Below, one piece after another: positions 1 through 23,846 of a stretch of 48,132 bases of DNA. Each line of letters starts with the position of its first letter. Within the stretch, counting starts at the first letter, position 1. The position numbers and the translations under genes were made by a program. Below the pieces are notes generated by a model. It did no database searches. It was not told the DNA's origin and was given only the letters and a program-made list of their open reading frames with translations. Source of the DNA: a virus (taxonomy: Duplodnaviria; Heunggongvirae; Uroviricota; Caudoviricetes). The DNA lies in IMG/VR virus record IMGVR_UViG_3300042691_020576. The stretch is one strand, 5' to 3'.

Positions 1-1245
1 AAGTTGGCTGACAAAATCAGCGATGTGAGAAATGCATTTGCTGAAATTCTTACATCTGATACGCCTAGACTGAGAGGCATCATTCAGAGAGTGCTGTTAC
101 CATACATCAATATGAGTGACAGAGACTTTGTGAAACTTTCTCAAAAAGCCGTAACAGACTTGTTTGACTGGGCTGTACAGACAGACCAAGACTTCAATAG
201 ATGGATTAAGAACATCATGATTAAGGATGGTGGTGTAGCAAGAGAGGTTGCATCATTTGTGAACGAGGTTAAGAAAGATCCAAATCATCCTCTGTACAAC
301 AACGAGATTGTTAATATGATAGAGGGAGTGCCTTCTCCAAAAGCTAGCGGTGAGGGTGTGAACAATATCAAGCTCAATCTTGGTGAGAACAAAGTGTATG
401 ACCAGAACAACATCATCTATGCTTTCCGTGAACTCAGAGATTATCTTAAGGGTGAGAACAGTGAGCTGTACAGAAGAATTGTAACCTTGGCAGTTATACA
501 GAGTGGTTTATCCAGCTCACCAATCTCTTTTACATCACTGATTCCTTACGAGGATTTTGAGGTGGTGTATAACAAAACTTTGTCTAGATTGGAGACAATT
601 AGTAACTTAGAGGACTTTTACAATCTTGGTGTATTCCAGAGAAACAACTGGAATAACGATGATGTAGTTCCATACATGAGAGCTCCTTGGATCAAAGGAA
701 GAGATGGTAACATGTACTACAATCCTGGTATGAGATTTTTACCAGATGCAGCTAAGAACGCTGTAGCTAGTAAAAATGTTCCTCCACTGGTGAGCATCTC
801 AACAAGAAATAGGGAATCTAACTCTGACTACATTGTGTACACCTGGGAGAAATACATAGACTTGCTTACTCCTGAGGAGAATGAAGCATTTGCTGCTAAG
901 AATTATTCAGGGGTGAATAACTTCATCAAGAAGAAGAAAGCAGCGATGAAAAAAGCTGGTGACTATTCCTACCTCAACAAAGGATTGTTTAAGAAAGTGT
1001 ATGATGATTTTGGAGAACCTCTTGAACATGAATATAAGGATAGAAAGTATTTTATATACAAAGCTGCGAATGCTTGGGGTGATAGTTTCAGAGCAAACGA
1101 GTTTTGGGATCATGATCAACAGTCTGTGATTGATAATGGATTTGTAAAGGTGACAGATGTTGACAATAATATGATCATTGATAAGTTCTTGGCTGGTAAG
1201 ACTAAGGCTGATAAAAAAGGTAAAAAGGATCCATTTACTTGTTAA
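1..1245 (+). CDS. C-terminal part of a large virion/ejected protein (5' truncated by window edge)
   Basis: Frame open from base 1; ends KDPFTC 13 nt before another giant gene; position typical of crAss-like cargo-protein cluster; no catalytic motif recognised. Confidence 0.5.
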   Translation, partial: KLADKISDVRNAFAEILTSDTPRLRGIIQRVLLPYINMSDRDFVKLSQKAVTDLFDWAVQTDQDFNRWIKNIMIKDGGVAREVASFVNEVKKDPNHPLYNNEIVNMIEGVPSPKASGEGVNNIKLNLGENKVYDQNNIIYAFRELRDYLKGENSELYRRIVTLAVIQSGLSSSPISFTSLIPYEDFEVVYNKTLSRLETISNLEDFYNLGVFQRNNWNNDDVVPYMRAPWIKGRDGNMYYNPGMRFLPDAAKNAVASKNVPPLVSISTRNRESNSDYIVYTWEKYIDLLTPEENEAFAAKNYSGVNNFIKKKKAAMKKAGDYSYLNKGLFKKVYDDFGEPLEHEYKDRKYFIYKAANAWGDSFRANEFWDHDQQSVIDNGFVKVTDVDNNMIIDKFLAGKTKADKKGKKDPFTC

Positions 1246-1258
1246 AAATTGATACTGA

Positions 1259-4200
1259 ATGACTTGTAATGTACGACAGAATGCTGTAGGTTATTTGAAA
1301 GAAACAGGTGCTCTTGATGAAAACATGATCATTAAAAGCGCTTCATTCTATGCTGAAAATGACAACCTTACAAATATTGCTAGGAGCAAGTATGGTGTGA
1401 AAGGTGAAGGTAGACTCTTTAATGTAAAGAGACTCCCAACTGACAACTATAAAGCTGTAGCTAATGAGGAACTATTCAATGAGCTTCAGCAGAAGTTTGA
1501 TAACTACCAAAGCACCAGATTAACAGATGAGGAGTTGGATGAACTCTATAAAGAGGAATCTCCTATTGATGTTGAAGGAGGTGTAGTGCTTTATCAAATA
1601 GATAATCCATTACAAATTGAACCACAGATAGAAACCTTGGATAAGTTCCTTCTTGACTTTGTAAGCCAGTTTGGTGTAAAGTCAAAAGAGTTTGATGATC
1701 TCAAGGATAGACTGGGCGTTGATGCGCTTGGTGCTACAGATGTTCTCAACAAGTTGATCTGGTACTCAAAGAACAGAAACGAAGAGACTGTTCCTGAGGA
1801 AGTTGGTCACATGTTGGTGATGTTGATGGGAGAGAACCATCCAATGATCAAGGAACTCATGGTTGAAATCAAGAGTTGGTCAGAGTATAAAGAGATAGAG
1901 AAAGTCTATCTTCCTATATACAAGAACGATAAGAAGGTGAAGGTTGAGGCTGTAGGTAAACTGTTGGCAAAAGCTTTTGTGAGAAATTACAAAGCTAGTG
2001 GTCTGAATCCTACACTTCTTCAAAGAGCCCTGAAAGCTATTGAAGAATTCATCAATTCTATACTTGACATCTTCTCTGCATACAACTATTCTGAGAAACT
2101 GGCTGATAAAATTGCTGTGAATGTTCTATTGGGCAACAGAGACTTTGTTGCTAACCTGAAACCTGCTGCTGAAGCATTGGACTTCAACAGAGCTATGGAA
2201 ACAAATGAGCACGCCCAGGAAATATTAAATGTGTTTGGAAAGGAGTTGAACAATCCTCTTACAGGTTCATTGGCTATTGCTGGTCAAGGAGAAACTATCT
2301 ACAGACCATCAGAATCACCTATTCATGATTTGGATTTTGTAGTGAATAACACTTCTCCTGAAAATCTTAAAAGATTGGAAGACAAGTTGATAGAATACAA
2401 AGCTGTAAATATCCACTATGGTTGGAAGAATAGAAACAAGTCTTACACCACCTATGCATACATGATTCCTAAGAAGGGTTACACTATTCAAGAGGTAGAA
2501 AGAGATGCATCAGGCTGGTTGAGAAGCTATTACCTTCGAGATGAGAAGGGTAATATTGTCACTGCGAATTCCACCAACATGATGGCAGTTGACTTCTTTG
2601 TATCTGATGTTCCAGCAAACAGAAGAAGCGTTGGTGACTTTATTAGCTGGAATGACGTATATTATGGTAAGCTCACTCTGAGTCCTATTGGTGAGAAAGA
2701 GGTGCTCTTTCAAAGAGAGAAAGATCAAGAAGACTTTGTATTCTTGGATCCTCAGGATAGATCAAGAATGTCTGATCCTGCATTTATCTACTACCAAATA
2801 GCTCCAAACAAACAGGAGAAAGAACTCACTCCTGCACAAAAAACTTTGCAACAACGCATTCTTGATACTCAGAACAATATTAAGAAAGTGTATGAGAAAA
2901 CAGCAACTGATCCTATTCTGTTAGATACAGAAGAAGCATCTAACTGGTATGAGGCAAAGCAACCTGATGGTACGTTCAAACGTGTAACCAAGAGGGTAAC
3001 TGACCGTGTGAAAGCATGGTATAAACAACGTTTCTCTGACAAGGTGTTCACCAAGGAAGAGATTGAGTTCAACGAATTCAAACGAAAGTTTGGTGTTAAA
3101 GGACACGGATTCTTTGAAGAAATCCATGCTAGATACTTCAACAAAGATGGTACAAGAAAACTGAACCCTGATGCTCGCTCATTAAAACTTTCTGAGGTGG
3201 ACACTCAGATATATGACAAGCTTGAGAAGTATTACGTAGACCTGATTGCTAAGTTCTCAGAAGGAGGAAAGAACCCTCTTGTATTCTCTGAAATCATCAT
3301 CTATGATCCTAAGGAGAAAGAAGCTGGTACCATTGACCTTATGATTGTTGAAGAGAGTGGTAAGGCAAACATCATTGACTGGAAGTTCATGAATGTTCAT
3401 GAGAATGCCAAGGATGTAGCTTGGTATAAGCAGGGAGCATACAACATCCAGTTGACTAGATATAAGGACATTCTTCGTGAGAGATATGGTGTGAAAGAGT
3501 TTGGTATGAACCGAGCAATCCCCATCATCATGAAGATTGAGAAAGAAAACCCCAAGGCAGATAAATCTCCTATGGTGGTGAAAGGTATTGCCATTGGTTC
3601 AGTGGACACTGCAAAGATTGAAGACTTACGTCTGATGCCTGTGTCTGAAGAAACTGAAAGTACTGGTTATGCACAGCTTGATGAGTTGATCAGAGTGTTA
3701 AATGCTACATACAAGCAGATCAGTAAGAAGACTGTCACTGAGGAAGATGAACGTGAGTTCAAGCGTGACCGTCTGAATATTCTGAAACAAGCTATTCGTG
3801 TAGCTCAAAGTACATTGAACATTGCTCCTCTGGTTGATGTAATCAAGATTATGAGAATTGAGGGTCAACAGATCCTTGATGACTATAACACAATCTACAA
3901 AGATAGACCTGCCAACAGTCAAGGTGAAGACTTCACTGATGAAGCTCTTTCTGAAATGGCTGCTAACATGAGAGAGTATACAGCATTCTCAGAAGTGTTT
4001 GGTACAATCAACGACTTGATTGGTGATCTCATCTATACCAAAGATATGGAGAGAGAAGCTAAGACAGAAGCTGAGAAAGATGATGTTGCTGCAAGAAAAG
4101 AACTGTTCAACAATATCAATGAAGAATCTAGACAAATTCGTATTTCTGCAAGAGAAATCAAAGATGTTTCTGGAAAGTTTGCTGACAAATTCATAGGACA

Positions 4201-6961
4201 GAAGAATCTTGTGAAAGGGTTATTGAATCCAGAAGCAGTGGTGAAAGGTTTATCTTCCATGTTCAGAGGTGTTTCTGAATTACCATTAGCATCTCTACAA
4301 GTGCTGTTTAAGATTGTAACGAACGCTAAAGGTAAAGCCTCCAGAGATGCTCTTGAGGAAGTGGATAAGTTGATGGCCATTCGTAAGAAGCTTGTTGACA
4401 GAGGTGGTGATGTTAGAGAACTCGTGAAGAAAATCTATCAGAAAGACGACAAGAACAAGATTGTAAACAAACTGATTTACAAATACAGTAAGTCTTTCTA
4501 TGAGTCTGTAGATAACAATGCTCTTGAGGGTGCTCGTAGCAAAAAGTGGTTACTGGACAATATTGATGTTGATGCATATAAGAAAGAAGCTGGTGAGCTT
4601 CTCCAGAAGAAGATTGAAAGAATCAAGAAACTTCACAGTGATGATGTTGAGATGATGGAAAGCTTAATCTTGGATGAGCAACGTAAGTGGGACATTAGTA
4701 GAAAAGACTTTAACGGTTTCAACAACTACATTATCAAGAGACACCCTCTTCAGAAGTGGGAGTCTGAAGAATACAAGAGTCTGAAGCAAGATCCAGACTT
4801 GATGGAGCTGTACAATTTTATCTCTACCATCAATGAAAAAGCAAAAAGTGCTGGCTATATTAGCAACCAACTTGCATCTACATTCTTACCATTTGTAAGG
4901 AAGAGCATGGCTGAGAGTTTAGCTTGGGATTTTGATTTGTCTGCAGTGATGAATATTGGGGAAAGTTTGAAGATCCAGGCTGATGATGTAGGCTATGGTA
5001 AGGTGAATGAACTCACTGGTGAACTGGAGAACGCTATTCCTAAATACTACACCTATGATTTCACTCGTGGGGAAGATGGTACAAATGACTACTCTGATGT
5101 AAGTGAAGACATCTTCAAGAACATGATCTTGTATATCAACCACATGGAGAAGTACAAGTATTTGTCTGCTGTAGAAGATCAGCTTCAGCTTGTGAAAACC
5201 ATCGAAACATTCAAGAACCACTTGAATACCAATAGGTTAGGTGAGGTGATCCGTCTGAAAACTGGTAAGCCTGAAGAGCTGAAGGGTAACGAAGAGAACA
5301 CCAAAATGTTTGATGACTTCTTGAGAGCTCTCCTGTACGAACAGAAATATCCTTTGTCTGATAGTGATTCTGCCCTGGGCGTTGGTAAGGTGGCAAACTT
5401 TGTAAAGAAAGCCATCAATAATGTAGCTGATAGAGAGGTGTTCAAAATTGATGAGAATCCATCTGCTACATCTCTGGTAAAAACCATGGATGCTGCAAAC
5501 AGAGCTTTCCAATTGAAAACCCTTGGTTTGGAATTCATCTCTGGTGCGGTGAACGCATTTGGTGGTAATATTCAGATTGCTACACAGGCTGGTAACTACT
5601 TCAAAGCTAGAGAGGTGCTGGCAAACGAAACAAAACTGATTGGTAATAAGTGGAAGAGTGATGATGAGCGTGAGATGTTCATCCAACTGATCAACAACTT
5701 TATGCCTCTCAAAGATGATCCTACATATGACAAGCTTCAGGAGGCTGGTTTAACCACGCTCACTAGAGCAAATTTCTCTGATATGCTGATGGTGTTCATG
5801 AGACAGCCAGAACAGCACATTGAGAAATCCATATTCCTTACCCTGTTAGATAACATGATGGTGGAAGATGGTAAGATTGTGAGCATCCGTGAGTTTGTCA
5901 AGAACAAGTATAAGGATAGATATGCATCTGCAAGCAGATATAGAGAGCTGGGCCCCAAGATTGAAGCTGAAATTGATGAGCTCAAGAGGACCAGATCAAT
6001 CAATTCTATCAAAAAACTGGAGAACGGTAAGCTTGTAATCCCTGGTCTTGACCTATCAAATATTCAGGAATTACAGCGTCTGACCAATTTGACCAGACGT
6101 ATTTCCAGAAATGCTACAGGTAACCTGGCTGATGCTGACATAAACCGTATGGGAATGAACATCTGGACCAAGTCCATGATGATATTCAAGAACTGGATCC
6201 CTAAACTGGTAGACACACGCTTTGGTGAGTTCAGAAAGGTGAGTGATGATTTCTCTGTAGAAATTGGAGATGATGGATTGACAACTGGTGAGAAGTATGA
6301 CATTGGTAGAATCAGACTCTTTGCAATGTTTCTCTCTTTGAATATTGTCAAGACTGCTAAAGACATCACTGATGTTCTATCTGTAAATGATGATGGTCTT
6401 GCAAAGCTGGACAAGATGTACGAGGAGTTTGCTGAACAATACGAGAAACGTACAGGCAAACCATTGGAGATGAGCAGAGAGGACTTTATTGACATGATTA
6501 GAACCAATCTTAGAAATCAGATCAAGGAACTTACAATCCTCCTGTCTATGTTTGGTGCCATGTTTGCTCTTGGATTTGCAGCGCCTGACGATGATGATGA
6601 TAGAGCTGACAAGAACTTCCACAGATATGCCCAAAGAGTGATTGACAAGTTCATTGGTGAATTATCATTCTTCTACAATCCTGCTGAGTTTCAGAAGATT
6701 TTGAGTGGTTCTGCCTTCCCAGCCATGGGTATCTTTGGTGACATTTCTAGATTCATCAGTCATATCACTATGGAAATGACAGGAATAGATACGTCTAATC
6801 CTGAACTCACTCCTGAGCAGGTGAGGAAGAAAGCACAACCCATTAAGAATTTGGGTAAGATGTTCCCTGTCACTAAGTCACTGTTCACTTATGGAGCTAT
6901 CATAGATGCTGAATTTGCTAAGGAATTTGACGTTACAATACAGAAAGAAAGCAGGCGATGA
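1259..6961 (+). CDS. Giant (1900 aa) polyvalent virion/ejection protein: zincin-like, nucleotidyltransferase-like and PD-(D/E)XK nuclease modules, helical C-terminal region
   Basis: Motifs PEEVGH...E (1793-1810), TGS-x18-DLD (2261-2335), GTIDL...IIDWK...QLTRY (3325-3463). Confidence 0.65.
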   Translation: MTCNVRQNAVGYLKETGALDENMIIKSASFYAENDNLTNIARSKYGVKGEGRLFNVKRLPTDNYKAVANEELFNELQQKFDNYQSTRLTDEELDELYKEESPIDVEGGVVLYQIDNPLQIEPQIETLDKFLLDFVSQFGVKSKEFDDLKDRLGVDALGATDVLNKLIWYSKNRNEETVPEEVGHMLVMLMGENHPMIKELMVEIKSWSEYKEIEKVYLPIYKNDKKVKVEAVGKLLAKAFVRNYKASGLNPTLLQRALKAIEEFINSILDIFSAYNYSEKLADKIAVNVLLGNRDFVANLKPAAEALDFNRAMETNEHAQEILNVFGKELNNPLTGSLAIAGQGETIYRPSESPIHDLDFVVNNTSPENLKRLEDKLIEYKAVNIHYGWKNRNKSYTTYAYMIPKKGYTIQEVERDASGWLRSYYLRDEKGNIVTANSTNMMAVDFFVSDVPANRRSVGDFISWNDVYYGKLTLSPIGEKEVLFQREKDQEDFVFLDPQDRSRMSDPAFIYYQIAPNKQEKELTPAQKTLQQRILDTQNNIKKVYEKTATDPILLDTEEASNWYEAKQPDGTFKRVTKRVTDRVKAWYKQRFSDKVFTKEEIEFNEFKRKFGVKGHGFFEEIHARYFNKDGTRKLNPDARSLKLSEVDTQIYDKLEKYYVDLIAKFSEGGKNPLVFSEIIIYDPKEKEAGTIDLMIVEESGKANIIDWKFMNVHENAKDVAWYKQGAYNIQLTRYKDILRERYGVKEFGMNRAIPIIMKIEKENPKADKSPMVVKGIAIGSVDTAKIEDLRLMPVSEETESTGYAQLDELIRVLNATYKQISKKTVTEEDEREFKRDRLNILKQAIRVAQSTLNIAPLVDVIKIMRIEGQQILDDYNTIYKDRPANSQGEDFTDEALSEMAANMREYTAFSEVFGTINDLIGDLIYTKDMEREAKTEAEKDDVAARKELFNNINEESRQIRISAREIKDVSGKFADKFIGQKNLVKGLLNPEAVVKGLSSMFRGVSELPLASLQVLFKIVTNAKGKASRDALEEVDKLMAIRKKLVDRGGDVRELVKKIYQKDDKNKIVNKLIYKYSKSFYESVDNNALEGARSKKWLLDNIDVDAYKKEAGELLQKKIERIKKLHSDDVEMMESLILDEQRKWDISRKDFNGFNNYIIKRHPLQKWESEEYKSLKQDPDLMELYNFISTINEKAKSAGYISNQLASTFLPFVRKSMAESLAWDFDLSAVMNIGESLKIQADDVGYGKVNELTGELENAIPKYYTYDFTRGEDGTNDYSDVSEDIFKNMILYINHMEKYKYLSAVEDQLQLVKTIETFKNHLNTNRLGEVIRLKTGKPEELKGNEENTKMFDDFLRALLYEQKYPLSDSDSALGVGKVANFVKKAINNVADREVFKIDENPSATSLVKTMDAANRAFQLKTLGLEFISGAVNAFGGNIQIATQAGNYFKAREVLANETKLIGNKWKSDDEREMFIQLINNFMPLKDDPTYDKLQEAGLTTLTRANFSDMLMVFMRQPEQHIEKSIFLTLLDNMMVEDGKIVSIREFVKNKYKDRYASASRYRELGPKIEAEIDELKRTRSINSIKKLENGKLVIPGLDLSNIQELQRLTNLTRRISRNATGNLADADINRMGMNIWTKSMMIFKNWIPKLVDTRFGEFRKVSDDFSVEIGDDGLTTGEKYDIGRIRLFAMFLSLNIVKTAKDITDVLSVNDDGLAKLDKMYEEFAEQYEKRTGKPLEMSREDFIDMIRTNLRNQIKELTILLSMFGAMFALGFAAPDDDDDRADKNFHRYAQRVIDKFIGELSFFYNPAEFQKILSGSAFPAMGIFGDISRFISHITMEMTGIDTSNPELTPEQVRKKAQPIKNLGKMFPVTKSLFTYGAIIDAEFAKEFDVTIQKESRR

Positions 6962-6995
6962 TAGCTATATTATGTCAGCTTTTTATTCATAACTC

Positions 6996-7026
6996 ATTGA
7001 AAATACATCACTAACAATTAATTTCG
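6996..7026 (+). promoter_or_regulatory. Bacteroidota sigma70-type promoter, ATTG-N19-TAATTTCG
   Basis: Near match to TTTG(-33)/TAnnTTTG(-7) consensus; ATG 5 nt downstream. Confidence 0.55.
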
Positions 7027-7031
7027 CAAAC

Positions 7032-7427
7032 ATGCGTACTGCTTCAATTTGCCCAACTTGCGCCACTTATGAGAATGCTGTATGTGTTCTTTACAATGGT
7101 GAATACCTTACCAATATTGACGTAAATCCTCTTGATTCTCTGGAGGTTGCTCTTGGTAAGATTAATGACAACCTCGTTCCCAAATCTGGAACAGGTGCCC
7201 CCACTGCTGCAGCCATATATCTTGGCCAACTTTATACACGAACAGGTGGTGCAACCAATTTATACTACGCACAAACTACTGGTACGGGCGCACTTGACTG
7301 GAGAATTCTCCTATCTGTAGACTACACAGGTGCTCCTGAGTATCTAGACAACAATGACGCTATTACTAATGGTTTGCTTGTTGGTCAAGTTTATCGTACA
7401 GATGATGTATTGAAAATCGTACATTAA
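7032..7427 (+). CDS. Small tail/structural protein
   Basis: N-terminal C-x7-CVxYxG domain shared with next gene; C-terminal YLDNNDA...GLLVGQVYRT...LKIV motif seen in Bacteroidota phage tail proteins. Confidence 0.5.
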   Translation: MRTASICPTCATYENAVCVLYNGEYLTNIDVNPLDSLEVALGKINDNLVPKSGTGAPTAAAIYLGQLYTRTGGATNLYYAQTTGTGALDWRILLSVDYTGAPEYLDNNDAITNGLLVGQVYRTDDVLKIVH

Positions 7428-7435
7428 TCATTGAA

Positions 7436-9169
7436 ATGAACGTATTACCATCCATATTGAACTATGATGGTACGTCAGGAGTTTCTGGTGCATGTAGTAC
7501 ACCTGAACCAGTTATTATCCCAAACGTACCCTTAGAGACTAGCCCTGAGACACAAGGATCATCCTTTCTCTCAAGGCTATACTCATTTAATAACACTTGC
7601 TCAACATGCGTGTCTCCTACACCAGTTCTTTGTGGTGGAGATGCATGTCCTATTATTCTAGATTCTAACTGTGTGTTTTATGAGGGAGGAAACCTCATTT
7701 ACACAAAGATCAATACAGGTGATACAGTCCAAGAAGCTTTTGAGAAAATTGAAGCTTTCTTTGCGTCTGGTGCTTCTGCTACCTCTGGTTCTAGTGGAAG
7801 TTCTGGCTCCTCAGGATCTAGTGGTTCATCAGGAACATCAGGATCTAGCGGAAGTTCAGGAACTGACGGTACTAGCGGATCAAGTGGTAGTTCAGGTAGT
7901 TCAGGAGAAACTGGATCTGCAGGTAGCTCAGGAACGTCTGGAACAGATGGTTCTGCAGGTAGTTCGGGTACATCGGGTTCCACTGTAGGAAATTTATTTG
8001 TAGATAATATTCTTGTAAGCTTGAGTGGTATAAAGACTCTTGGTAGATATGGAAATGGAGACATCATTCCATCAGCAGGATTAACTTCTGAAGAAGTGAT
8101 GAATCTGATTGCTAGAGAACCACTTAATCCAACTGTAAGTTTGTCTTCTCCAACTGTAGTTCAGTTTAATCAAACTGCCATCAGCAACATATTGAACTTC
8201 TCTTACACAATCAACTCTATTGGTGCGACTGTGGCAAGTGCTGTTCTTTCCTACAGAAGACAGGGTGATGTTACTTGGACAGTTTTGAGTACAAGCACAA
8301 TCACTCCGTCAAGCTTTACACATGCTTTCACAGACCCTATTCCATTCTCAGGAGCTACAAACGCTGCAGGTAACAACGTCTTAGCATATCAGTATCAATA
8401 TGTTGTAACTGATACAGCTGGTGCTTCATCAACTGCAACTTTCAATGTTACACCTCAATCTTATGTGGCTCCAAGTATCAGTTTCTCTGCTCCTGCTGTT
8501 GCTTTTGCATATCCTGCAATTGAAACAAATACTAAGAGAGAGATTGGTAATACATCTTCTACACTTCAAGGTTCTACCTCCAGAAACTCTTCTTTGGTAC
8601 CAATTAGTGGTTATCAGTTTCAAGTTTCTGTAAATGGTGGTGGATATACAAACCTAGGAAGTGTTGTGTCCTTAGGAGCTGCTGGTGGTAGCTTTACATC
8701 TTTACCAGATGCACAGTCTACAGCCAACAATATAACATCTGTAACATATAGAGTGTTAGTGTATGATGCTTACAATGCAACTACAGGATCATTTGCAAAT
8801 TCTGTTTACGGTATTATATTCCGCAACATTATATTCTATGGTCCAGTTGCTGCTTCTGTTACAAACTCTGCAGAAGTGAGAGCTCTATCATCATTTATTT
8901 TTACAGATGGTTCAAATCCATTCATCCTTAATACAGGTAGTACGTTGGTGAAATTTGTTGCAGCTATGCCTGCAACAGTTCCAGTTGTTAAATCAATCAC
9001 TCAAGTAATTGACTTAGATGCTTTGAATGCTAATATTACTGCTTCATATATTCTAAGTCAATTCAATGTTCAAAATGGTGGTGGTGTGAACGTGTTGTAC
9101 AATGTTTATGAAATGACCATTGGATCACCATATTCATCCAACCATAGACATCAAATAACCACAACTTAA
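7436..9169 (+). CDS. Virion structural protein with Ser/Thr-rich collagen-like (X-X-G)n segment and Ig-like beta-rich C-terminus
   Basis: About 22 X-X-G triplets; T/S/V-rich beta pattern; directly upstream of tail fibre. Confidence 0.6.
   Translation: MNVLPSILNYDGTSGVSGACSTPEPVIIPNVPLETSPETQGSSFLSRLYSFNNTCSTCVSPTPVLCGGDACPIILDSNCVFYEGGNLIYTKINTGDTVQEAFEKIEAFFASGASATSGSSGSSGSSGSSGSSGTSGSSGSSGTDGTSGSSGSSGSSGETGSAGSSGTSGTDGSAGSSGTSGSTVGNLFVDNILVSLSGIKTLGRYGNGDIIPSAGLTSEEVMNLIAREPLNPTVSLSSPTVVQFNQTAISNILNFSYTINSIGATVASAVLSYRRQGDVTWTVLSTSTITPSSFTHAFTDPIPFSGATNAAGNNVLAYQYQYVVTDTAGASSTATFNVTPQSYVAPSISFSAPAVAFAYPAIETNTKREIGNTSSTLQGSTSRNSSLVPISGYQFQVSVNGGGYTNLGSVVSLGAAGGSFTSLPDAQSTANNITSVTYRVLVYDAYNATTGSFANSVYGIIFRNIIFYGPVAASVTNSAEVRALSSFIFTDGSNPFILNTGSTLVKFVAAMPATVPVVKSITQVIDLDALNANITASYILSQFNVQNGGGVNVLYNVYEMTIGSPYSSNHRHQITTT
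7781..7978 (+). repeat. (S/T-S/D-G)n triplet repeat
   Basis: TSGSSGSSG...TDG...SAG; Gly every third residue, heterogeneous Ser codons. Confidence 0.85.
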
Positions 9170-9179
9170 TATATAAAAG

Positions 9180-12100
9180 ATGCCATTAGTACCAGGCTTA
9201 CAATTACCTTTTGGAATACAACCTGTTAACCCAGTGTTGGTGGATAGTTATGCTGGTCCATATTCATCTATTGTGGAAGCCCTATCTAGCATCCCATCAG
9301 CTCTTCGTGTACAAACAAGATTTGTACACATTATTGATGGTGGTGTAGGTAAGTTGTATTGGTTTAGAGATGGTATAGCAGATGGTAATCTTGTAGAATT
9401 TTCCACTGCAGCAATTGCTTCATTGAATGGGCTAACTGCTAGTTCTCAAACATTTGCAACAGGATCAACAGGAACTGATTTTGGCATTTCTTCTGTAGGC
9501 AGTGTACATACTTTTAACATTCCTACAGCAAGCAGTTTGAACAGAGGCTTGTTAAGTTCTGCTGATTGGTCAACATTTAATGGTAAAGAACCTGCAATTG
9601 CTGCAGGTACTACCACTCAATATTGGAGAGGAGATAAAAGTTGGCAGACATTAGATACAGCTGCTGTTGCAGAAAATCCAGGCTTTTTATATTTTACAGA
9701 AAACAGAGTACTTAACACTCCTCTTACAGGATTGAATGTCACTGGTGGAACTGTATTAGCAACTGATTCACTTTTGGCTGCTTTTGGTAAGTTACAAAAC
9801 CAGATTAATGGATTAATGGGTGGTGTTGTATTTGTTGACTTTTGGAATGCAAGTACAAATACTCCCACTATACCAACCGCAGTTGGAAATAAAGGTAAAT
9901 ACTACATCGTTAATGTTCCTGGTAATACAAATATTGATGGTATTACAGAATGGCAGGTTGGTGACTGGGTAATTAGTAACGGTACTGTTTGGGGAAAGGT
10001 GGATAACACAGATTCTGTTGTTTCTGTAAATGGATATACAGGAGCTATAAATTTAGTGACTGGTGATATATCTGAAGGTGCGGGAACTATTCCTGGTAGA
10101 CCTTCTCAACTGTTTTTCACAGATGCACGGGCTAGAGCAGCTTTATCATTTGTTGCAGGTAGTGGTGCGTACAACAGTACTACAGGTGTTATCACTATTC
10201 CTACGAATACAAATCAGCTTACCAATGGTGCTGGTTATATTACATCTGTTACAGGAACATTAAATAGAATCGCTGTAACTGGTGGTACTACAATTGATAT
10301 TGCATCAACTTATATTGGTCAATCTTCCATTACCACTCTTGGTACAATTACAACTGGTGTATGGAACGGATCTGCTATTGGAGATTCATTTATATCTTCT
10401 TCAACCAATTGGAACACTGCTTTTGATACAAGAATTCAATTTGGTATTTTATCAGCTAGACCAGCTGCTGGTACAAATGGTAGAAACTACTATGCTACAG
10501 ATAATGGAATAGAGTATTTTGATAATGGTTCGGCTTGGGTGATAAAAGGTGGCGCTTTGACAGGAGATGTAAACTCATCTCCAAACAGCCTTTCAACCAC
10601 TGTTGTTGGCTTAAGAGGAGCAGCTTTACCAACTCTATCTGTAGGTAATCTTAGATATAATGGTAGTGCTTGGGTATTTGATAGTACAGGATATCTTCCT
10701 TTGAGTGGTGGTACAGTTACTGGTGCTGTGACAGTACGAAATACACTAAACATTATGTCTAGTGACGGTATTATGGGGGTTAGAATATCAGCTCCTATAA
10801 ACTTTGGTAGTCAAATGAATATTGACATAGACCAGCCCAGTCAAAGAATTTTAATAGGTAATGGAAACTTAAACCAGAGTGTAGGAATACAAAGAGATAG
10901 TGCTCTTGGAGGTTTAATTATTCGTTCTGCGTTTGGTCAAGGTTTTGCTTTTTATGATGGTGCTAGCCAAATAGCCACTTTATCTGGAGGTGGTAATTTT
11001 ACAGCAAACTCATTTATAAAATCAGGTGGTACATCAACACAATTCTTGAAAGCAGATGGTTCTGTAGATTCCAATACATATGCCACAACGTCTTCATTGG
11101 GAGCATATCTACCTTTGAGTGGTGGAACGTTGACGGGAATAACAACAATGCAAAATACCTATTTAGGTTTCAATACGGCTTCTGCTCAAAGGGGTATTGT
11201 TTCAACATATAACTATATCATCGGTGGTAGTAGTACAGATTATTCATTTGGACTATTTTCTGAAGGTGAAATATTCTTCGCTGCAGGTGGTTCAGCTACA
11301 AAAAGACTGACGATTGCAACCACAGGCGCAGCTACGTTTTCATCATCGGTAACAGCACAAGGAAATTCACGCTTTATAGCAAGTGGTGGTATTGGCACTC
11401 CATTGCTTCATTTAATGCAGTCAAATAATGTGGATGGTTATTACCTATCTGTTGACAATGCTGTTGATGGAAGAATGGAATTGAGAAGTCAAGCAGGTGC
11501 GGTAATTCAAACATGGTATAGAAGTAATTTGAATACTGTTTTCCCAAATGGCAACGTAGGTATTGGTATTGCAAGTCCTGGTAATACATTACATGTAAAT
11601 GGTACGGCAGCTTTTGGTGTTACTTCAACGGCTCATACTGTAGGTATAACTGCGGCAAATTCTGCAGATGCAGATATACTTATAGTAGGGATGAGTGGTG
11701 TTACTAACGGTTTTAGAGTTCAAAGGGTTTCTTCTGTTATGAGATATACAATGCTTGATGGTAATTTGGGCATTGGTACAGGGACTCCTTCTTATAGGCT
11801 TCATGCATCTAATTTATCTAATGGTACAACTGCTGCATTTGGTGGTTCATCATTTGGATTAAGAATAGATAATGGCGGCTCTTTTGGTAACGGAGGTTCT
11901 ACTATTCACGGTGTAGATAACACTTTTGTTGGTAGCTATCAGAAACTAAGTATCAATGGAAGCAGTCTTGAATTTATGACTGACTATTCCACAAGACTAA
12001 CTATTGCAAATTCAGGTGTAGTCACTTTCACAAATACATTATTATTAGGTAGTAATTCTACTATTTATAAGCCAAATGTTTCAAGTGGAACTTTTGCTTC

Positions 12101-13154
12101 GCCACTTTTTGAAAATATAATGTCCTATGGAACTAGTACATTTCTTTCGTATATACAAGGTGGCAATTCGTTCAATTCAACTACAGGCACTTGGTTAAGA
12201 TTTGTTGTAAACAATCATGGCGGCACTCTACCTATAAATGCGCTTACAATAGTTCCAAATGGAAATGTAGGCATTTTAAACACTACACCATATTCAGCAT
12301 TAGATGTTAGTTATGAAAATTCATTTAATTCAACTACTCCTGGCACTTCTCCTTACGGTATCTATTTAAGCGGACAAGCTACGAATGGATTCGCAACAGG
12401 TATAACTTTTAGTGCAGGGGGTGCATCAGCAGGCTCAGCTCAAGCAGGTATTTATTCGCAAGGTTCGGGTTCATATGGTACACGAATGTATTTTGCCACA
12501 ACGAATAACTATGGAGTTGGCTCTATTACTCGAATGATGATAAATGAAAACGGTAATGTGGGAATAGGCACATCGCCTGCATTTAATCTTCATGTAAGAG
12601 TAGACCAAGGAAGTGGAACATTGATAACTTCTCAAAACAATGCAACAGGGAACTCTTTCAACTACGCAGGCTTTAACGCAATCGCAAGAACAACAGGCGG
12701 TGCAGAAATTGGGTTTGGTATTGCGGCTTGGGGTGGGGGTAGTGTAAGGCAAAATGAAGTTTGGCTTGGTTCATATACTAATCATCCACTTGTGTTAAAT
12801 GTGAATGATTCAGAGAGACTTAGAATTGCAACAAGTGGAGCAATAACTGCTCAATCCTCCATTACAGCCACATCATTCTTTGAATCATCCGACTTACGCC
12901 AAAAAAGTGTTTTTTCTACATTGAATAGTGCAGACGGAATTGCTGCTATTAATTACATTTTCCTTCCAGATGGTTCAACTAAATGGGGATATGGTGCGCA
13001 GCATGTACAAAATATCCTCCCATATGCTGTATATGAAGGATCTGATAATTTATTAAAAGTTGATTACACAACTGTGCATACATATAAGATTGCTATGTTG
13101 GAACAAAGAATTGAGGAGTTAGAAAAAGAGTTGGATAATTACAGAAATGCTTAA
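9180..13154 (+). CDS. Tail fibre/spike with C-terminal intramolecular chaperone (Peptidase S74-like)
   Basis: G/S/T-rich; four GN[VL]GI repeats; duplicated YLPLSGGT; C-terminal SDLRQK...GYGAQ...coiled coil typical of autocleaving chaperones. Confidence 0.8.
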   Translation: MPLVPGLQLPFGIQPVNPVLVDSYAGPYSSIVEALSSIPSALRVQTRFVHIIDGGVGKLYWFRDGIADGNLVEFSTAAIASLNGLTASSQTFATGSTGTDFGISSVGSVHTFNIPTASSLNRGLLSSADWSTFNGKEPAIAAGTTTQYWRGDKSWQTLDTAAVAENPGFLYFTENRVLNTPLTGLNVTGGTVLATDSLLAAFGKLQNQINGLMGGVVFVDFWNASTNTPTIPTAVGNKGKYYIVNVPGNTNIDGITEWQVGDWVISNGTVWGKVDNTDSVVSVNGYTGAINLVTGDISEGAGTIPGRPSQLFFTDARARAALSFVAGSGAYNSTTGVITIPTNTNQLTNGAGYITSVTGTLNRIAVTGGTTIDIASTYIGQSSITTLGTITTGVWNGSAIGDSFISSSTNWNTAFDTRIQFGILSARPAAGTNGRNYYATDNGIEYFDNGSAWVIKGGALTGDVNSSPNSLSTTVVGLRGAALPTLSVGNLRYNGSAWVFDSTGYLPLSGGTVTGAVTVRNTLNIMSSDGIMGVRISAPINFGSQMNIDIDQPSQRILIGNGNLNQSVGIQRDSALGGLIIRSAFGQGFAFYDGASQIATLSGGGNFTANSFIKSGGTSTQFLKADGSVDSNTYATTSSLGAYLPLSGGTLTGITTMQNTYLGFNTASAQRGIVSTYNYIIGGSSTDYSFGLFSEGEIFFAAGGSATKRLTIATTGAATFSSSVTAQGNSRFIASGGIGTPLLHLMQSNNVDGYYLSVDNAVDGRMELRSQAGAVIQTWYRSNLNTVFPNGNVGIGIASPGNTLHVNGTAAFGVTSTAHTVGITAANSADADILIVGMSGVTNGFRVQRVSSVMRYTMLDGNLGIGTGTPSYRLHASNLSNGTTAAFGGSSFGLRIDNGGSFGNGGSTIHGVDNTFVGSYQKLSINGSSLEFMTDYSTRLTIANSGVVTFTNTLLLGSNSTIYKPNVSSGTFASPLFENIMSYGTSTFLSYIQGGNSFNSTTGTWLRFVVNNHGGTLPINALTIVPNGNVGILNTTPYSALDVSYENSFNSTTPGTSPYGIYLSGQATNGFATGITFSAGGASAGSAQAGIYSQGSGSYGTRMYFATTNNYGVGSITRMMINENGNVGIGTSPAFNLHVRVDQGSGTLITSQNNATGNSFNYAGFNAIARTTGGAEIGFGIAAWGGGSVRQNEVWLGSYTNHPLVLNVNDSERLRIATSGAITAQSSITATSFFESSDLRQKSVFSTLNSADGIAAINYIFLPDGSTKWGYGAQHVQNILPYAVYEGSDNLLKVDYTTVHTYKIAMLEQRIEELEKELDNYRNA

Positions 13155-14034: not shown

Positions 14035-14346
14035 ATGAACACACTTTTTGTCATTATTGTAGCAATTGCATGTGTTGTACTGGTGTATCTTATCCTTAAA
14101 GGACAGAAAGATCCAGTTACAACCACATCCACTACAACATTAGCTCCTCCTTCAGGTCCTTGTTCTCTTTACAAAATCTCTGTAAAAGATGACAGAAACT
14201 TTCTATCTTACATCAGTTGTGATGGTACAAGTGTAGATGATAGTGGTCTTCCTGTAGGTTTGGAAAATGTAATTTGTTGTAAAACAGGTTCGATCACTGG
14301 TAGTGGTATGGAAATTATTTATGCTGGAGAATGTGAACCAATTTAA
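14035..14346 (+). CDS. Small membrane-anchored protein with Thr-rich linker and Cys-rich C-terminus
   Basis: N-terminal hydrophobic helix, PVTTTSTTTLAPP, five Cys downstream. Confidence 0.55.
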   Translation: MNTLFVIIVAIACVVLVYLILKGQKDPVTTTSTTTLAPPSGPCSLYKISVKDDRNFLSYISCDGTSVDDSGLPVGLENVICCKTGSITGSGMEIIYAGECEPI

Positions 14347-19931: not shown

Positions 19932-20037
19932 CACTAATAACAAAATGACCTTTGGAAAACGCAAAGGCGGGAAGGCAAAGAAATCTTCTGGTCCAAAGGA
20001 TAAGCATGTAAGTAAGTACAGAGGGCAAGGAAAATAA
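19915..20037 (+). CDS. 40-aa basic peptide ending YRGQGK (not in ORF track)
   Basis: MAKGNNTNNKMTFGKRKGGKAKKSSGPKDKHVSKYRGQGK translated by hand; YRGQG terminus recurs in small phage basic peptides. Confidence 0.6.
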   Translation: MAKGNNTNNKMTFGKRKGGKAKKSSGPKDKHVSKYRGQGK

Positions 20038-20091
20038 CAAAGTTTGTTATACTGATTTAACGACATTGGTTAACCTATTTCGTTAGAGCTC

Positions 20092-20122
20092 TTTGTAATT
20101 TGCGAATTGAAAATTAATTTTG
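20092..20122 (+). promoter_or_regulatory. Promoter TTTG-N19-TAATTTTG
   Basis: Full consensus; ATG 5 nt downstream at 20128. Confidence 0.7.
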
Positions 20123-20127
20123 TAGAC

Positions 20128-20949
20128 ATGGCTATACCTTCACGACAGATAGGCTGGGGCCCACAAGAAAATCTCCTGTGGGAAATCAACAAGCAACTAG
20201 AAAAGCTTGGTTGTCAGCTTTGTAATGTGGGTATTCCAGGTCCTCAAGGTCCTCCAGGTCCTGCTGGTACATTAGCTGATGCTTATCATGGAGCTTTCAT
20301 ATTTGATAGCGCCACCACTCTTACAGCTGGGATGAACTCCAATACTACTAGTCCAATTCAAGTGGCAAGTACAGCAGGATTCTATGCTCCTGGATATATA
20401 AGAATTGGTACAGAAATCATAGCATACACAGGAATATCTGGAAATACATTTACAGGAATCACTAGAGGTGTAGCTAGTTCTGGTGGATCTAACCATAGTA
20501 TTGGTAGTGACGTTGCTCAAGCACAACTCACTGCTGCTGGTGTGCCTAAACAGGTGCTTCTAGATCAAACAGATCTTTCAAATGGTGTGACACTCAATCC
20601 TCTGACAGGAGATGTAACAATTGTGAACGCTGGAACATACAATCTACAATTTAGCATTCAGTTTGAAAACTTTAGTAATGATGTTGAGGATGCTATAGTG
20701 TGGTTTGCTGTAAATGGAAACAATGTTTCTAAATCAGCTAGTTATATTACCACTCCCACTATCCATGGTGGTACACCAGGAGCCACTCTCATGACAGTGA
20801 ATCTTTTCTTAGCACTTTCCGCTAATGATGTAGTGGCATTGAAATGGACTAGTAATCAAGGAAAAACAGCTATAACAAGCATACCTCCTGTAGGTAGTAC
20901 AATACCACAATCTCCAGGAGTAATTTTTACAGTGAATAGAATCGCATAA
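20128..20949 (+). CDS. Decoration/fibre-like protein: MAIPSR anchor, short collagen segment, BclA/C1q-like C-terminal domain
   Basis: GIPGPQGPPGPAG; VTIVNAGTYNLQFSIQF beta-sandwich motif. Confidence 0.6.
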   Translation: MAIPSRQIGWGPQENLLWEINKQLEKLGCQLCNVGIPGPQGPPGPAGTLADAYHGAFIFDSATTLTAGMNSNTTSPIQVASTAGFYAPGYIRIGTEIIAYTGISGNTFTGITRGVASSGGSNHSIGSDVAQAQLTAAGVPKQVLLDQTDLSNGVTLNPLTGDVTIVNAGTYNLQFSIQFENFSNDVEDAIVWFAVNGNNVSKSASYITTPTIHGGTPGATLMTVNLFLALSANDVVALKWTSNQGKTAITSIPPVGSTIPQSPGVIFTVNRIA

Positions 20950-20960
20950 ATTTTTATAAC

Positions 20961-21104
20961 ATGGCAATCCCTTCAAGACCGTTAAGTCAGGACCCACAGT
21001 CCCAGCTCCTTTGGAACATCTCCAAACAGCTTGAGCAGTTGATTGGATTGGTAAGTAAGTTGACTCCAACTACTACTACCACCACAACCACTGCAGCTCC
21101 ATAA
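20961..21104 (+). CDS. 47-aa MAIPSR-family paralogue with poly-Thr tail (not in ORF track)
   Basis: MAIPSRPLSQDPQSQLLWNISKQLEQLIGLVSKLTPTTTTTTTTAAP; matches N-terminus of 20128 gene. Confidence 0.8.
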   Translation: MAIPSRPLSQDPQSQLLWNISKQLEQLIGLVSKLTPTTTTTTTTAAP

Positions 21105-21129
21105 TTAGCACAAACCAACAAAACTACAT

Positions 21130-22146
21130 ATGAAGGATCTTAAGTATGTCTGCGTCCAACCAGATGATAACTACTATACATGGCAAGTTCATCTTTGGTT
21201 GGAGAGTTTGAAAAACAGAGGAGAGAGCGATAAAGCAATTGTGCTGGTGTTCACTCCCAATTACAGAACTCAGAATCCTAAATGGCAACAGATAGTTGAT
21301 CTCTATCCAGAAGCACAGTTTCACTTCTATAAAGATGAACATGATGTAAGTTCCTTATTAGGAATCTATATTCCAGTGCTTAGACCATACACTTTATGGA
21401 GACATTGGAAGGAGCATCCTGAACTTAGCAATAGTGCTATCCTCTACTGTGATTCAGATGTTATTTTTACAGAACATTTTGATATTCAACAGTTTGTAGA
21501 AAACGATGTTTGTTATCTGTCTGATACGAATAGCTACATCAACGCTAAATACTTTGACAGCAAGGTGAACGATGTTCTTCCTGATAAACTGGAAGAATAT
21601 AAAACACGAGACATCCTAGCTGAGATTGGTAGTGTAATTGGTATCAGCAGACAAGAAGCTGAAGCAAACAATGACCATTCTGGAGGAGCTCAATATCTCC
21701 TGAAGAACATTGACGCAGCTTTTTGGAACAAGGTGATGAATGATTGTATTCTGATCAGATCCTACTTACAGAGAATCAATAAGGAATATTTCCAAAGCGA
21801 AGACAAAGGTTTCCAAAGTTGGTGTGCTGATATGTGGGCTGTCCTGTGGAATCTTTGGGTGAGAGAGAAACAAGTGGAAGTGATTCCAGAAATGGGCTTC
21901 TCTTGGGCCCCTGACCCAATCACCAAGCTAGAAACTCATCCGATCCTTCATAATGCAGGTGTAGTAGGTACCAACATGGATGGTATAAACTACTTCTACA
22001 AAGCTAAATACCACCAGAGTGGTGATCCTACAAAGGATGCACATCTGGAAGCTGTATTGAACGATGAGAAAGCTCAAGTTAAATGTACATGGTATTACGC
22101 AAACGAACTGAAAAAACTTAGTCAAAAATACAACCTTAACTATTAA
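21130..22146 (+). CDS. GT-A glycosyltransferase resembling plant peptidyl-Ser galactosyl-/Hyp arabinosyltransferases (GT96/GT95)
   Basis: NYYTWQ, LRP...W, YCDSDVI (DxD), GGAQ, WCADMW, ILHNAG motifs in the order of the SERGT/HPAT family. Confidence 0.65.
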   Translation: MKDLKYVCVQPDDNYYTWQVHLWLESLKNRGESDKAIVLVFTPNYRTQNPKWQQIVDLYPEAQFHFYKDEHDVSSLLGIYIPVLRPYTLWRHWKEHPELSNSAILYCDSDVIFTEHFDIQQFVENDVCYLSDTNSYINAKYFDSKVNDVLPDKLEEYKTRDILAEIGSVIGISRQEAEANNDHSGGAQYLLKNIDAAFWNKVMNDCILIRSYLQRINKEYFQSEDKGFQSWCADMWAVLWNLWVREKQVEVIPEMGFSWAPDPITKLETHPILHNAGVVGTNMDGINYFYKAKYHQSGDPTKDAHLEAVLNDEKAQVKCTWYYANELKKLSQKYNLNY

Positions 22147-22164
22147 CCCTTTAACTTTTTTAAA

Positions 22165-22380
22165 ATGGGAAGCATTGATAAACGTCCTTTAAAAGCTTAT
22201 GTCCGTTTCGATGGAAGCGGAAGAATAGTTGCAGGTAGCCTTATTCTGAGAAGAAAGAAGCCCAAGGTAGGTAAGTGGGTGGAAATTCCAGCGTATGAGT
22301 GCTGCAATCCTACAACTACCACAACAACAACTGTGGCACCAACAACAACAACCACAACCACCGAGGCTCCTATCGGTTAA
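22165..22380 (+). CDS. KAYVR-family small protein with double poly-Thr (mucin-like) tail
   Basis: ECCNPTTTTTTTVAPTTTTTTTEAPIG. Confidence 0.75.
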   Translation: MGSIDKRPLKAYVRFDGSGRIVAGSLILRRKKPKVGKWVEIPAYECCNPTTTTTTTVAPTTTTTTTEAPIG

Positions 22381-22390
22381 AACATAACAC

Positions 22391-22789
22391 ATGGCAACTA
22401 ATAATAAATTAAAAGCGTACGTCCGTTATGATGGTACAAGACGTGTTATTCCTGGTAGCTTGATTCTTCAGAGATTCAAGCCAAAGGTGGGTAATTGGAA
22501 AGAGATTCCAGCAAATGAATGTTGCAATTATGAACCTCTACCTGCAAACTGTATTGAGTTTGTTGTAAACACAACGGGTGATACATGGTTTACTTTTAAC
22601 TTTACCACTACAGGACCTATCAACTTCACTGTTGATTGGGGGGATGGTACAACATATTCTGATTCAGAAATTGGTGAATTTCATGAAGTGTCACATTACT
22701 ATCCTCAAGAAGATCAGCAGTACACTGTTAGAGTTTGCTTTGATAATATCGCATCTGTAACAGAAATTGAGTTTCCTGGCAACGACTAA
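22391..22789 (+). CDS. KAYVR-family protein with PKD-like C-terminal domain
   Basis: N-terminal 45 aa paralogous to 22165; VDWGDG...H.Y...YTV PKD motif. Confidence 0.65.
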   Translation: MATNNKLKAYVRYDGTRRVIPGSLILQRFKPKVGNWKEIPANECCNYEPLPANCIEFVVNTTGDTWFTFNFTTTGPINFTVDWGDGTTYSDSEIGEFHEVSHYYPQEDQQYTVRVCFDNIASVTEIEFPGND

Positions 22790-22800
22790 ACTTATTAAAA

Positions 22801-23391
22801 ATGGCAGCAAGAATAACATCAATAACAGGTTTGCAAAACTTAACAGGGTTAGTAAACTTCTATGCAGATTGGAACTCACTTACATCTGTTAACTTATCTG
22901 GACTTACAAATCTACTTTTAGTAGATGTGAGTGACCAAAATTCAATTATTGGTAACCAAAACTGTTTAACATCTATTAATCTATCAGGATCTACAGCTAT
23001 TGAAGTGTTACGTCTTGATGACAGCGATTTCTCAGCTGGTTATCCTGACATCTCAGCACTTGCTAGTTTACTAGTATTAGATATGGATCAGTGTCAATTA
23101 TCAGGAGTTATAGACTTATCCATATTTCCCAATCTTATATCCATTGATCTTAGTAGTAACAATAACATTACATCAGTAATTTTACTTGAACAATTTTTAA
23201 ACCATGTTAATCTTGGCCAAAATGCTCTTACACAAGAATGTGTAGATGATGTCTTGATGTGGTTAGATGGTAGTGGTGTAGAGAATGGATATGTAGATTT
23301 ATCAGGTGGTACAAATGCTGCACCTAGTCAACAGGGGATAGATCATGCTGATAGTCTTATTAGTAAAGGTTGGCAAGTGTTATACAACTAA
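22801..23391 (+). CDS. Leucine-rich-repeat protein
   Basis: LTSVNLSGLTNL, LTSINLSG, LISIDLSSN repeats with C-cap. Confidence 0.65.
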   Translation: MAARITSITGLQNLTGLVNFYADWNSLTSVNLSGLTNLLLVDVSDQNSIIGNQNCLTSINLSGSTAIEVLRLDDSDFSAGYPDISALASLLVLDMDQCQLSGVIDLSIFPNLISIDLSSNNNITSVILLEQFLNHVNLGQNALTQECVDDVLMWLDGSGVENGYVDLSGGTNAAPSQQGIDHADSLISKGWQVLYN

Positions 23392-23432
23392 TCAACTGCT
23401 GCCACTATAACAACAGTATAATATAAAATCAA

Positions 23433-23846
23433 ATGGCAAAATCATTATTTCCTTCTCAAATGTTAGAGGGTGGTGCAGGTGAAATGACCTTAGAAGGTAT
23501 TGCTGGTAAGCTCACCTATTTTCATGAACAATTACACTTATTGCATTGGACTACAACTAGTTATGCAGAACACCAAGCTCTTGGTGGTCTGTATGATTAT
23601 GTGCATGATTTCAAAGATGGTGTGATTGAGAAACTCATGGGCTATACAGGCAAGCGTCCTAAGGCATTCAAAATAGAACAATGTTCTGATACAGCAAGTG
23701 CTGATGCTGTTGTAAGTTCTTTGATGGGCTTTGCATCTAGTCTGAAAAGCTTTGCCGAGTCTAATGGCTATCATGACATCTCTAACCTGGCTGATGCTCT
23801 GAGTGGCGAAGCTGCGAAAACTAAATATCTCTTAACTCTGTCCTAA
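23433..23846 (+). CDS. Ferritin-like (Dps/DUF5856-like) protein
   Basis: QLHLLHW...YAEHQALGGLYD...DGVIEKLMG four-helix-bundle metal motifs. Confidence 0.7.
   Translation: MAKSLFPSQMLEGGAGEMTLEGIAGKLTYFHEQLHLLHWTTTSYAEHQALGGLYDYVHDFKDGVIEKLMGYTGKRPKAFKIEQCSDTASADAVVSSLMGFASSLKSFAESNGYHDISNLADALSGEAAKTKYLLTLS

Follow-up and report, generated by a model that had tools for sequence, protein, structure and literature searches.

What does a viral glycosyltransferase modify when its gene lies between two miniature proteins that end in runs of threonine (Thr)? The question is raised by a locus in a 48,132-nucleotide stretch of tailed-phage DNA (IMG/VR record IMGVR_UViG_3300042691_020576; hereafter the window), where a 338-residue protein, which we call the enzyme, is encoded between two short open reading frames (ORFs), stub A and stub B. 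The original prediction for this locus described a plant-type peptide O-glycosyltransferase flanked by its likely poly-Thr substrates, and we find all three ORFs where it placed them, with the enzyme gene between two mini-proteins that carry poly-Thr tails (Table 1). The best-supported reading, which the predicted fold and the gene linkage make reasonably probable, is that the enzyme is a cytoplasmic O-glycosyltransferase acting on the Thr tails of neighboring virion proteins.

We show that the enzyme has structural and sequence features characteristic of glycosyltransferases. No Pfam family matches the 338-residue protein even at E values up to 1, and the family profile retrieves nothing significant from the Protein Data Bank (PDB) sequences; it does match phrog_4417, a family of unknown function, with residues 4-330 aligned to profile positions 1-291 of 293 (E 4.8e-55). 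The family comprises 2728 proteins at E 0.001 or better in 90% clusters, with 754 representatives at 50% identity. Conservation was judged on a 53-member family alignment, from which an AlphaFold2 model was also built, and this model has a GT-A alpha/beta/alpha fold (predicted local distance difference test, pLDDT, 97.1; predicted template modeling score, pTM, 0.93). D108, D110 and H274 are invariant in the alignment, as are Y80, Y136, F257, K291 and Y323, and the motifs YYTWQ, VLRPYTLW, CDSDVIF, SGGAQYLL, QSWCADMWAVLWN and ILHNAGV are all present in the enzyme and fall in conserved columns. In the model, the DxD motif (D108-S-D110) follows strand 103-106 and H274, within ILHNAG, closes strand 272-274, which would put the DxD and the C-terminal histidine at the usual positions of the GT-A metal site, where metal binding is predicted. 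As judged from the sequence and the model, the first strand begins at residue 4, with no hydrophobic segment at the N-terminus ahead of it. Relatives of the enzyme are found fused to GT2, GT6, GT7C, GT25, Gly_transf_sug, methyltransferase and radical-SAM domains, as would be expected for an enzyme of glycan assembly. Given the modeled GT-A fold and the invariant DxD and histidine, it is very likely that the 338-residue protein is a glycosyltransferase, as had been proposed.

The nearest named families by shape are GT96 and GT95. In structural comparisons with these families and with GT8, which set predicted models against predicted models, the top match among reviewed UniProt models is Arabidopsis SGT1, a peptidyl-serine alpha-galactosyltransferase of GT96 (E 1.4e-10), and the next are the GT95 enzymes HPAT1-3 (template modeling score, TM, 0.62-0.63 over residues 1-332, or 0.60-0.63 when legume orthologs are included). 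Overall, the GT96 and GT95 models reach TM 0.57-0.63, against 0.41-0.48 for GT8 enzymes. Proteins named "HPAT-like domain" predominate among the AFDB clusters once clusters of the enzyme's own family are excluded, and the ESM Atlas likewise ranks a chlorophyte HPAT cluster (TM 0.71) above a GT8 cluster (0.59). By language-model features, the nearest named clusters have the HPAT family PF23452 on 10% and 58% of their members. The structural check that accompanied the original prediction therefore came out in its favor, and we count the likeness between these models as resemblance rather than membership. GT96 had no representative crystal structure as of 2021 (PMC8476585), and fold searches of an April 2026 copy of the PDB returned no GT95 or GT96 structure among the matches listed. 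PF23452 found no match in three Bacteroidota genomes that encode homologs of the enzyme or in 401 sampled Bacteroidota genomes, and it was likewise silent in control genomes, so that this result is uninformative on absence.

If the fold identifies the enzyme, the genomic surroundings suggest a candidate acceptor. A six-frame scan of the window found three in-frame Thr runs inside ORFs in all, two of which flank the enzyme gene. The third, at 14119-14139, belongs to a 103-residue ORF; should the hydrophobic N-terminal segment of that protein span the membrane, the access of its Thr stretch to a cytoplasmic enzyme would depend on topology. Using the single 338-residue protein as the query, we collected 80 related viral contigs (63-83% identity), and 70 of these have a Thr run in the ORF directly beside the enzyme gene. 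Up to 1 kb from the gene, the 80 contigs have 1.3-2.5 Thr runs per kb, and beyond that distance about 0.03 per kb. The runs are limited to 7-9 residues, are interrupted by xAP or Ser, and are written in mixed ACA, ACT and ACC codons, the median longest stretch of one codon being 2. This codon mixing rules out an origin as slippage-generated microsatellites, and we conclude that the runs are selected as threonine at the protein level.

The linkage with poly-Thr ORFs, which had been named as a check on the prediction, also holds across distant phages. In Enterococcus phage phiFL1A, the homolog lies directly after the major tail protein gene, whose product ends in NGTTTTTSTTTTTTSSTTTTTTTQASSK, while in Enterococcus phage 4995_1 and Lacticaseibacillus phages R9.1 and R3.3 it follows the gene for a Thr-tailed major capsid protein. 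The homolog in Lactococcus phage 1706 (orf14) follows the major structural protein orf13, which has a Thr tail, and that in Clostridium phage FA88 follows the unannotated, Thr-tailed ORF18. Small Thr-tailed ORFs, two per phage, precede it in Staphylococcus phage DH5 and Lactobacillus phage Iacchus, and two proteins with long Thr/Ser linkers precede it in Chryseobacterium phage MA9V-3. Metagenomic contigs add cases in which the enzyme gene comes directly after giant open frames; these span 1659-2069 codons from stop to stop and carry their Thr runs some 100-200 residues ahead of the C-terminus. Under a strict rule, which required an immediately adjacent same-strand ORF with at least 8 Thr or Ser, including at least 5 Thr, in some span of 10 residues, 12 of 19 diverged lineages pass, compared with 1 of 225 size-matched ORFs from control viral contigs (about 140 times the control rate; binomial p ~3e-24). 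Since the partner proteins (capsid, tail-tube, fiber, giant and small) are non-homologous, we argue that the association has formed repeatedly. Among metagenomic single-domain representatives below 50% identity, an adjacent Thr/Ser-rich ORF is present in 5/6, the sixth contig having almost no flank. The association is also seen in the reverse direction: when 118 viral loci were selected solely because they have eight Thr codons in a row, 7 proved to encode the enzyme, directly adjacent in 6 of them, as against 0 of 117 acidic-run controls (Fisher p 0.007).

Homologous tail-tube proteins offer a further comparison. Those of Streptococcus phages Javan47 and Javan505 and Lactobacillus phages Bassarid and phiJL-1 are 50-60% identical to that of phiFL1A and have no Thr tail, and whole-genome searches found no homolog of the enzyme in any of these four phages. 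The tail-tube proteins of R3.3 and phiFL1A are Thr-tailed, and both phages have the enzyme. Thus, Thr tails and enzyme have been gained or lost together among homologous tail-tube proteins.

These observations bear on an alternative in which the Thr runs are ordinary flexible linkers, common in the same gene module, and the enzyme targets something else, either a polymer of the host envelope, so as to exclude superinfecting phages or mask receptors, or a glycan attached to a different phage protein. Thr/Pro-rich linkers are indeed commonplace in Bacteroidota proteins, and the long bacterial homologs fused to other glycosyltransferase domains, together with the majority of sampled poly-Thr loci, where no enzyme lies nearby, would fit such a separation. 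We nonetheless consider this alternative unlikely, because the adjacency recurs, at the excess over controls given above, with non-homologous partners in phages of two phyla, and because enzyme and Thr tails come and go together on homologous tail-tube proteins. In addition, the 338-residue protein lacks a membrane segment, and we recognized no partner genes of the Gtr type in the window. Serotype conversion of the Gtr type was itself rejected on the position of the gene and the lack of such partners in the window.

Several points weigh against O-glycosylation of Thr tails as the function of the enzyme. Only about 6% of the sampled poly-Thr loci have the enzyme within the stretch examined, and the 19 lineages counted above are not fully independent. 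The chromosomal homologs of Bacteroidota (480-830 residues, with a second domain fused) have no Thr-rich neighbors, and neither do two representatives of about 500 residues. At the sequence level, neither PF23452 nor Glyco_transf_8 (PF01501) matches the 338-residue protein at E up to 1, and PF23452 gives a single weak match among 53 relatives (E 0.012), leaving the other 52 undetected. The literature that we searched reports no experimental evidence of glycosylation in any carrier phage and no paper on the enzyme family, nor one linking HPAT/SGT1-like enzymes with phages. Finally, that the small proteins are part of the virion is itself an inference. Two of these points narrow the claim. As the long homologs lack Thr-rich neighbors, the link to threonine is a property of the single-domain phage branch and not of the whole family. 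Likewise, the label "plant-type" stands as a statement about structural proximity to GT96 and GT95 and would be premature as one of membership, given the silence of PF23452 and the missing membrane anchor.

Two side observations concern the long branch and the tails, respectively. The ESM Atlas contains a 581-residue Bacteroidota cluster with TM 0.86 to our model and Glyco_transf_7C on 64% of its members, and one of the two representatives of about 500 residues, a 497-residue bacterial homolog, is encoded between a C39-peptidase ABC exporter with a 248-residue partner and a GT2 gene. This setting is bacteriocin-like, although no precursor peptide was seen in it, and is a hint that enzymes of the long bacterial branch might act on secreted peptides. 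As for the tails, the same short motif follows the Thr run on both capsid and tail proteins within one phage (HHD in 1706, SHV in R9.1 and SHA in R3.3). It looks like a C-terminal tag copied to two unrelated proteins, and is possibly a recognition or stop signal for the enzyme.

The small Thr-tailed proteins are each related to a longer neighbor. Over its first 27 residues, stub A aligns at 63% identity with residues 8-34 of the 280-residue collagen-like fiber protein encoded upstream (E 6e-8), and stub B aligns over residues 9-48, at 72.5% identity, with the start of the 132-residue protein encoded downstream (E 6e-19). The fiber protein has PHROG matches to tail-fiber and baseplate families and a weak match to BclA_C, BclA being a collagen-like glycoprotein of the Bacillus exosporium; its listed TTG start is probably wrong, and the ATG at 20128, which opens the module common to stub A, is probably the real one. 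The longer relative of stub B has a weak PKD_4 match, under the cutoff. Among relatives, the A and B modules head proteins of two kinds, short ORFs whose stop comes about 3 residues past the final run of Thr and longer proteins with a globular domain joined on by a Thr linker. Runs of at least five Thr occur in 44 of the 47 A-module ORFs of at most 100 residues and in 39 of the 45 B-module ORFs of that size, and the ratio of non-synonymous to synonymous substitution rates (dN/dS) is about 0.23 for the A module and about 0.11 for the B module, each at dS ~1.4. Since the modules are under purifying selection, the stubs are real genes and not debris. The relationship of stub A to a fiber protein suggests that the A and B modules may be docking or oligomerizing heads.

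A different account of the stubs holds that they are not virion parts at all. They could be leader-plus-core substrates in the style of RiPPs (peptides made on the ribosome and then modified after translation) or glycocins, decoys that vie with the long paralogs for a site of docking, or side products that arise when modules are shuffled at Thr-linker DNA, with the enzyme gene a passenger at such recombination junctions. Each stub does copy only the N-terminal module of the adjoining long gene, the same modules head proteins of widely differing length in relatives, and the 497-residue bacterial homolog has the bacteriocin-like surroundings described above. We nevertheless find this account quite unlikely, since the stubs are intact in most of the 80 relatives under the purifying selection just noted, usually stop about 3 residues past the last Thr run, and in the case of stub A have a collagen-like fiber protein as the long paralog, a pairing more in keeping with a structural docking module than with a leader peptide.

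Table 1. Coordinates of the features discussed, in the window and at related loci.
Sequence	Feature	Positions	Strand	Description
Window	Stub A	20961-21104	+	47 residues; N-terminal module of ~35 residues, then PTTTTTTTTAAP (C-terminal end); C-terminal end with poly-Thr tail KLTPTTTTTTTTAAP; candidate acceptor
Window	Enzyme	21130-22146	+	338 residues; predicted soluble GT-A fold glycosyltransferase of phrog_4417
Window	Stub B	22165-22380	+	71 residues; N-terminal module of ~48 residues with ECCN end, then two T7 runs split by VAP; C-terminal end CCNPTTTTTTTVAPTTTTTTTEAPIG; poly-Thr tail, C-terminal end PTTTTTTTVAPTTTTTTTEAPIG; candidate acceptor
Window	Long paralog of stub A	20107-20949	+	280 residues; A module, then collagen-like GPQGPPGPAG, then fiber-type C-terminal domain
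Window	Long paralog of stub B	22391-22789	+	132 residues; B module, then small globular domain, no Thr run
Window	Leucine-rich-repeat protein	22801-23391	+	196 residues; directly downstream of long paralog of stub B; every Pfam leucine-rich-repeat match under cutoff
Window	Third Thr-run ORF	14035-14346	+	103 residues; hydrophobic N-terminal segment, then VTTTSTTTLAPP; 7 kb from enzyme
L007	B-module protein of a relative	1282-1923		B module, Thr linker, then domain
L137	Giant frame preceding enzyme	3207-9413
L172	Giant frame preceding enzyme	7135-12111
L183	Giant frame preceding enzyme	3268-8277
L324 (1706)	orf10, capsid/protease	468-2528		Ends in Thr run + HHD
L324 (1706)	orf13	3238-3975		Ends in Thr run + HHD
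L086 (R9.1)	Shared-motif protein	3882-4931		SHV
L086 (R9.1)	Shared-motif protein	7339-7938		SHV
L340 (R3.3)	Shared-motif protein	321-947	-	SHA
L340 (R3.3)	Shared-motif protein	3258-4175	-	SHA
L334	497-residue bacterial homolog with exporter and GT2 genes	1068-7276
L346-L350, L352-L356	Chromosomal two-domain homologs			Chitinophaga, Sphingobacterium, Mucilaginibacter and relatives

The wider setting of the locus addresses a third possibility. The window is phage DNA, in which a plus-strand arm (1-26.4 kb) encodes very large structural proteins, collagen-like tail fibers, an Amidase_3 lysin and leucine-rich-repeat proteins, and a minus-strand arm encodes rIIA/rIIB, ribonucleotide reductase, a UvsX-like recombinase, primase, helicase and Sak4. 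DNA glycosylation is a common role of phage glycosyltransferases according to the passages of PMC12619734 that summarize the subject, and the enzyme could in principle transfer sugar to hydroxymethylated bases of the phage genome and thereby help it evade restriction. Such a role is very improbable here: the gene lies in the late structural arm, among fiber and lysis genes, its homologs in small siphophages lie between a capsid or tail-tube gene and the next structural gene, no base-hydroxymethylating enzyme was recognized in the window, and the closest enzymes by structure are GT-A enzymes that act on proteins or glycans, rather than DNA glucosyltransferases of the T4 type. DNA glycosylation was accordingly rejected on gene position and on the lack of partner genes in the window.

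The host of this phage is likely a member of the Bacteroidota. Related viral contigs measure 95-117 kb, and a nucleotide search with positions 20000-23500 returned no match among cultured phages; Chryseobacterium phage MA9V-3 comes closest among those in culture but is still distant (enzyme 33% and recombinase 45.5% identical). We base the host assignment on the homologous loci in reference prokaryote genomes, all 15 of which are Bacteroidota, including the three closest (60-65% identity), found on contigs binned with Cytophagales, Saprospiraceae and Sediminibacterium genomes. A contig from a Sediminibacterium metagenome-assembled genome (L344, JBBAJS010000010.1, 111,986 bases) is sized like the related viral genomes and likewise has the enzyme gene between two stubs. 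It probably represents a phage genome that ended up in a bacterial bin, and as such gives a lead to the host.

Taken with O-glycosylation of Thr tails as the working model, these data allow a mechanism to be sketched. The 338-residue protein would be a soluble, metal-dependent GT-A glycosyltransferase made late in infection, which in the host cytoplasm would transfer a sugar from a host nucleotide-sugar to the threonine hydroxyls of (T7-xAP)n tails. As every one of the nearest relatives is a retaining enzyme, the linkage formed would probably be alpha. The carriers of the tails would be the two small flanking proteins in this phage and, in relatives, also fiber-like proteins with the same N-terminal modules. 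It is tempting to hypothesize that each small protein combines a virion-docking or oligomerizing head with a glycosylated, mucin-like tail, and that together they form a sugar-coated brush on the particle, which might act as a shield, in adhesion or in some other role. A broader proposal, which we regard as evenly balanced, is that tailed phages of Bacillota and Bacteroidota share a widespread and unrecognized mucin-type O-glycosylation system, made up of one HPAT/SGT1-like enzyme and linked poly-Thr acceptor tails on capsid, tail-tube, fiber or purpose-built small anchor-plus-tail proteins, the enzyme family being a prokaryotic-virus sister of plant and algal GT95/GT96.

If this is true, a simple signature, a Thr-run tail beside a phrog_4417 gene, would predict modified virion proteins, and a family annotated as unknown would acquire a function. 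The findings are relevant to the biology of dairy phages and to how immunogenic the enterococcal and staphylococcal phages used in therapy are. A compact enzyme-plus-tag pair would become available for glycoengineering, as would a microbial relative for the study of plant GT95/GT96.

How far the parallel with plants extends can be seen by setting the systems side by side. The plant GT96 and GT95 enzymes add the first sugar onto hydroxy-amino-acid runs of extended, repetitive proteins, and are Golgi type II membrane proteins (PMC8012813). SGT1 and HPAT1-3, and their algal counterparts, are like the phage enzyme in predicted structure and language-model features; they differ in that identity is only 11-13%, in that the phage protein opens with the first strand of the fold and has no anchor, and in the acceptor, which is serine or hydroxyproline in plants and presumably threonine in the phage. 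GT8-type retaining GT-A enzymes, among them LgtC, glycogenin, the Skp1 alpha-galactosyltransferase and GlyE of the pneumococcal serine-rich-repeat adhesin pathway, lie further off, at the GT8 scores given above, and the phage protein has about 80 additional residues, in helical insertions, relative to them. The capsid-glycosylating glycosyltransferase A64R of chlorovirus PBCV-1, which belongs to a virus of eukaryotes and assembles an N-linked glycan, is no nearer to the phage enzyme than the general GT-A fold.

To our knowledge, mycobacteriophages are the only phages in which experiments have shown phage-encoded enzymes to glycosylate the virion, with the effect of blunting recognition by antibodies. 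In that system, as outlined in the parts of PMC12619734 and PMC11652166 that report the work of Freeman et al. (2023, Cell Host Microbe), phage-encoded glycosyltransferases place O-linked glycans at the C-termini of capsid and tail-tube subunits. The likeness lies in the position of the genes, since homologs of our enzyme are encoded directly behind capsid or tail-tube proteins that have Thr runs at their ends, and in the window the tails are on two small flanking ORFs. Unlike the mycobacteriophage system, the candidate acceptors in this clade are homopolymeric T7 runs on dedicated small proteins and are known from sequence alone. Mycobacterium phages are absent from the 77 phage records with a homolog (tblastn, E 1e-5 or better), and on this basis the enzyme family appears to be different by sequence. 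If our reading is correct, a different enzyme family would do the same job in many phages, those of lactic acid bacteria, enterococci, staphylococci, clostridia and environmental Bacteroidota, and this can be tested directly in phages already cultured.

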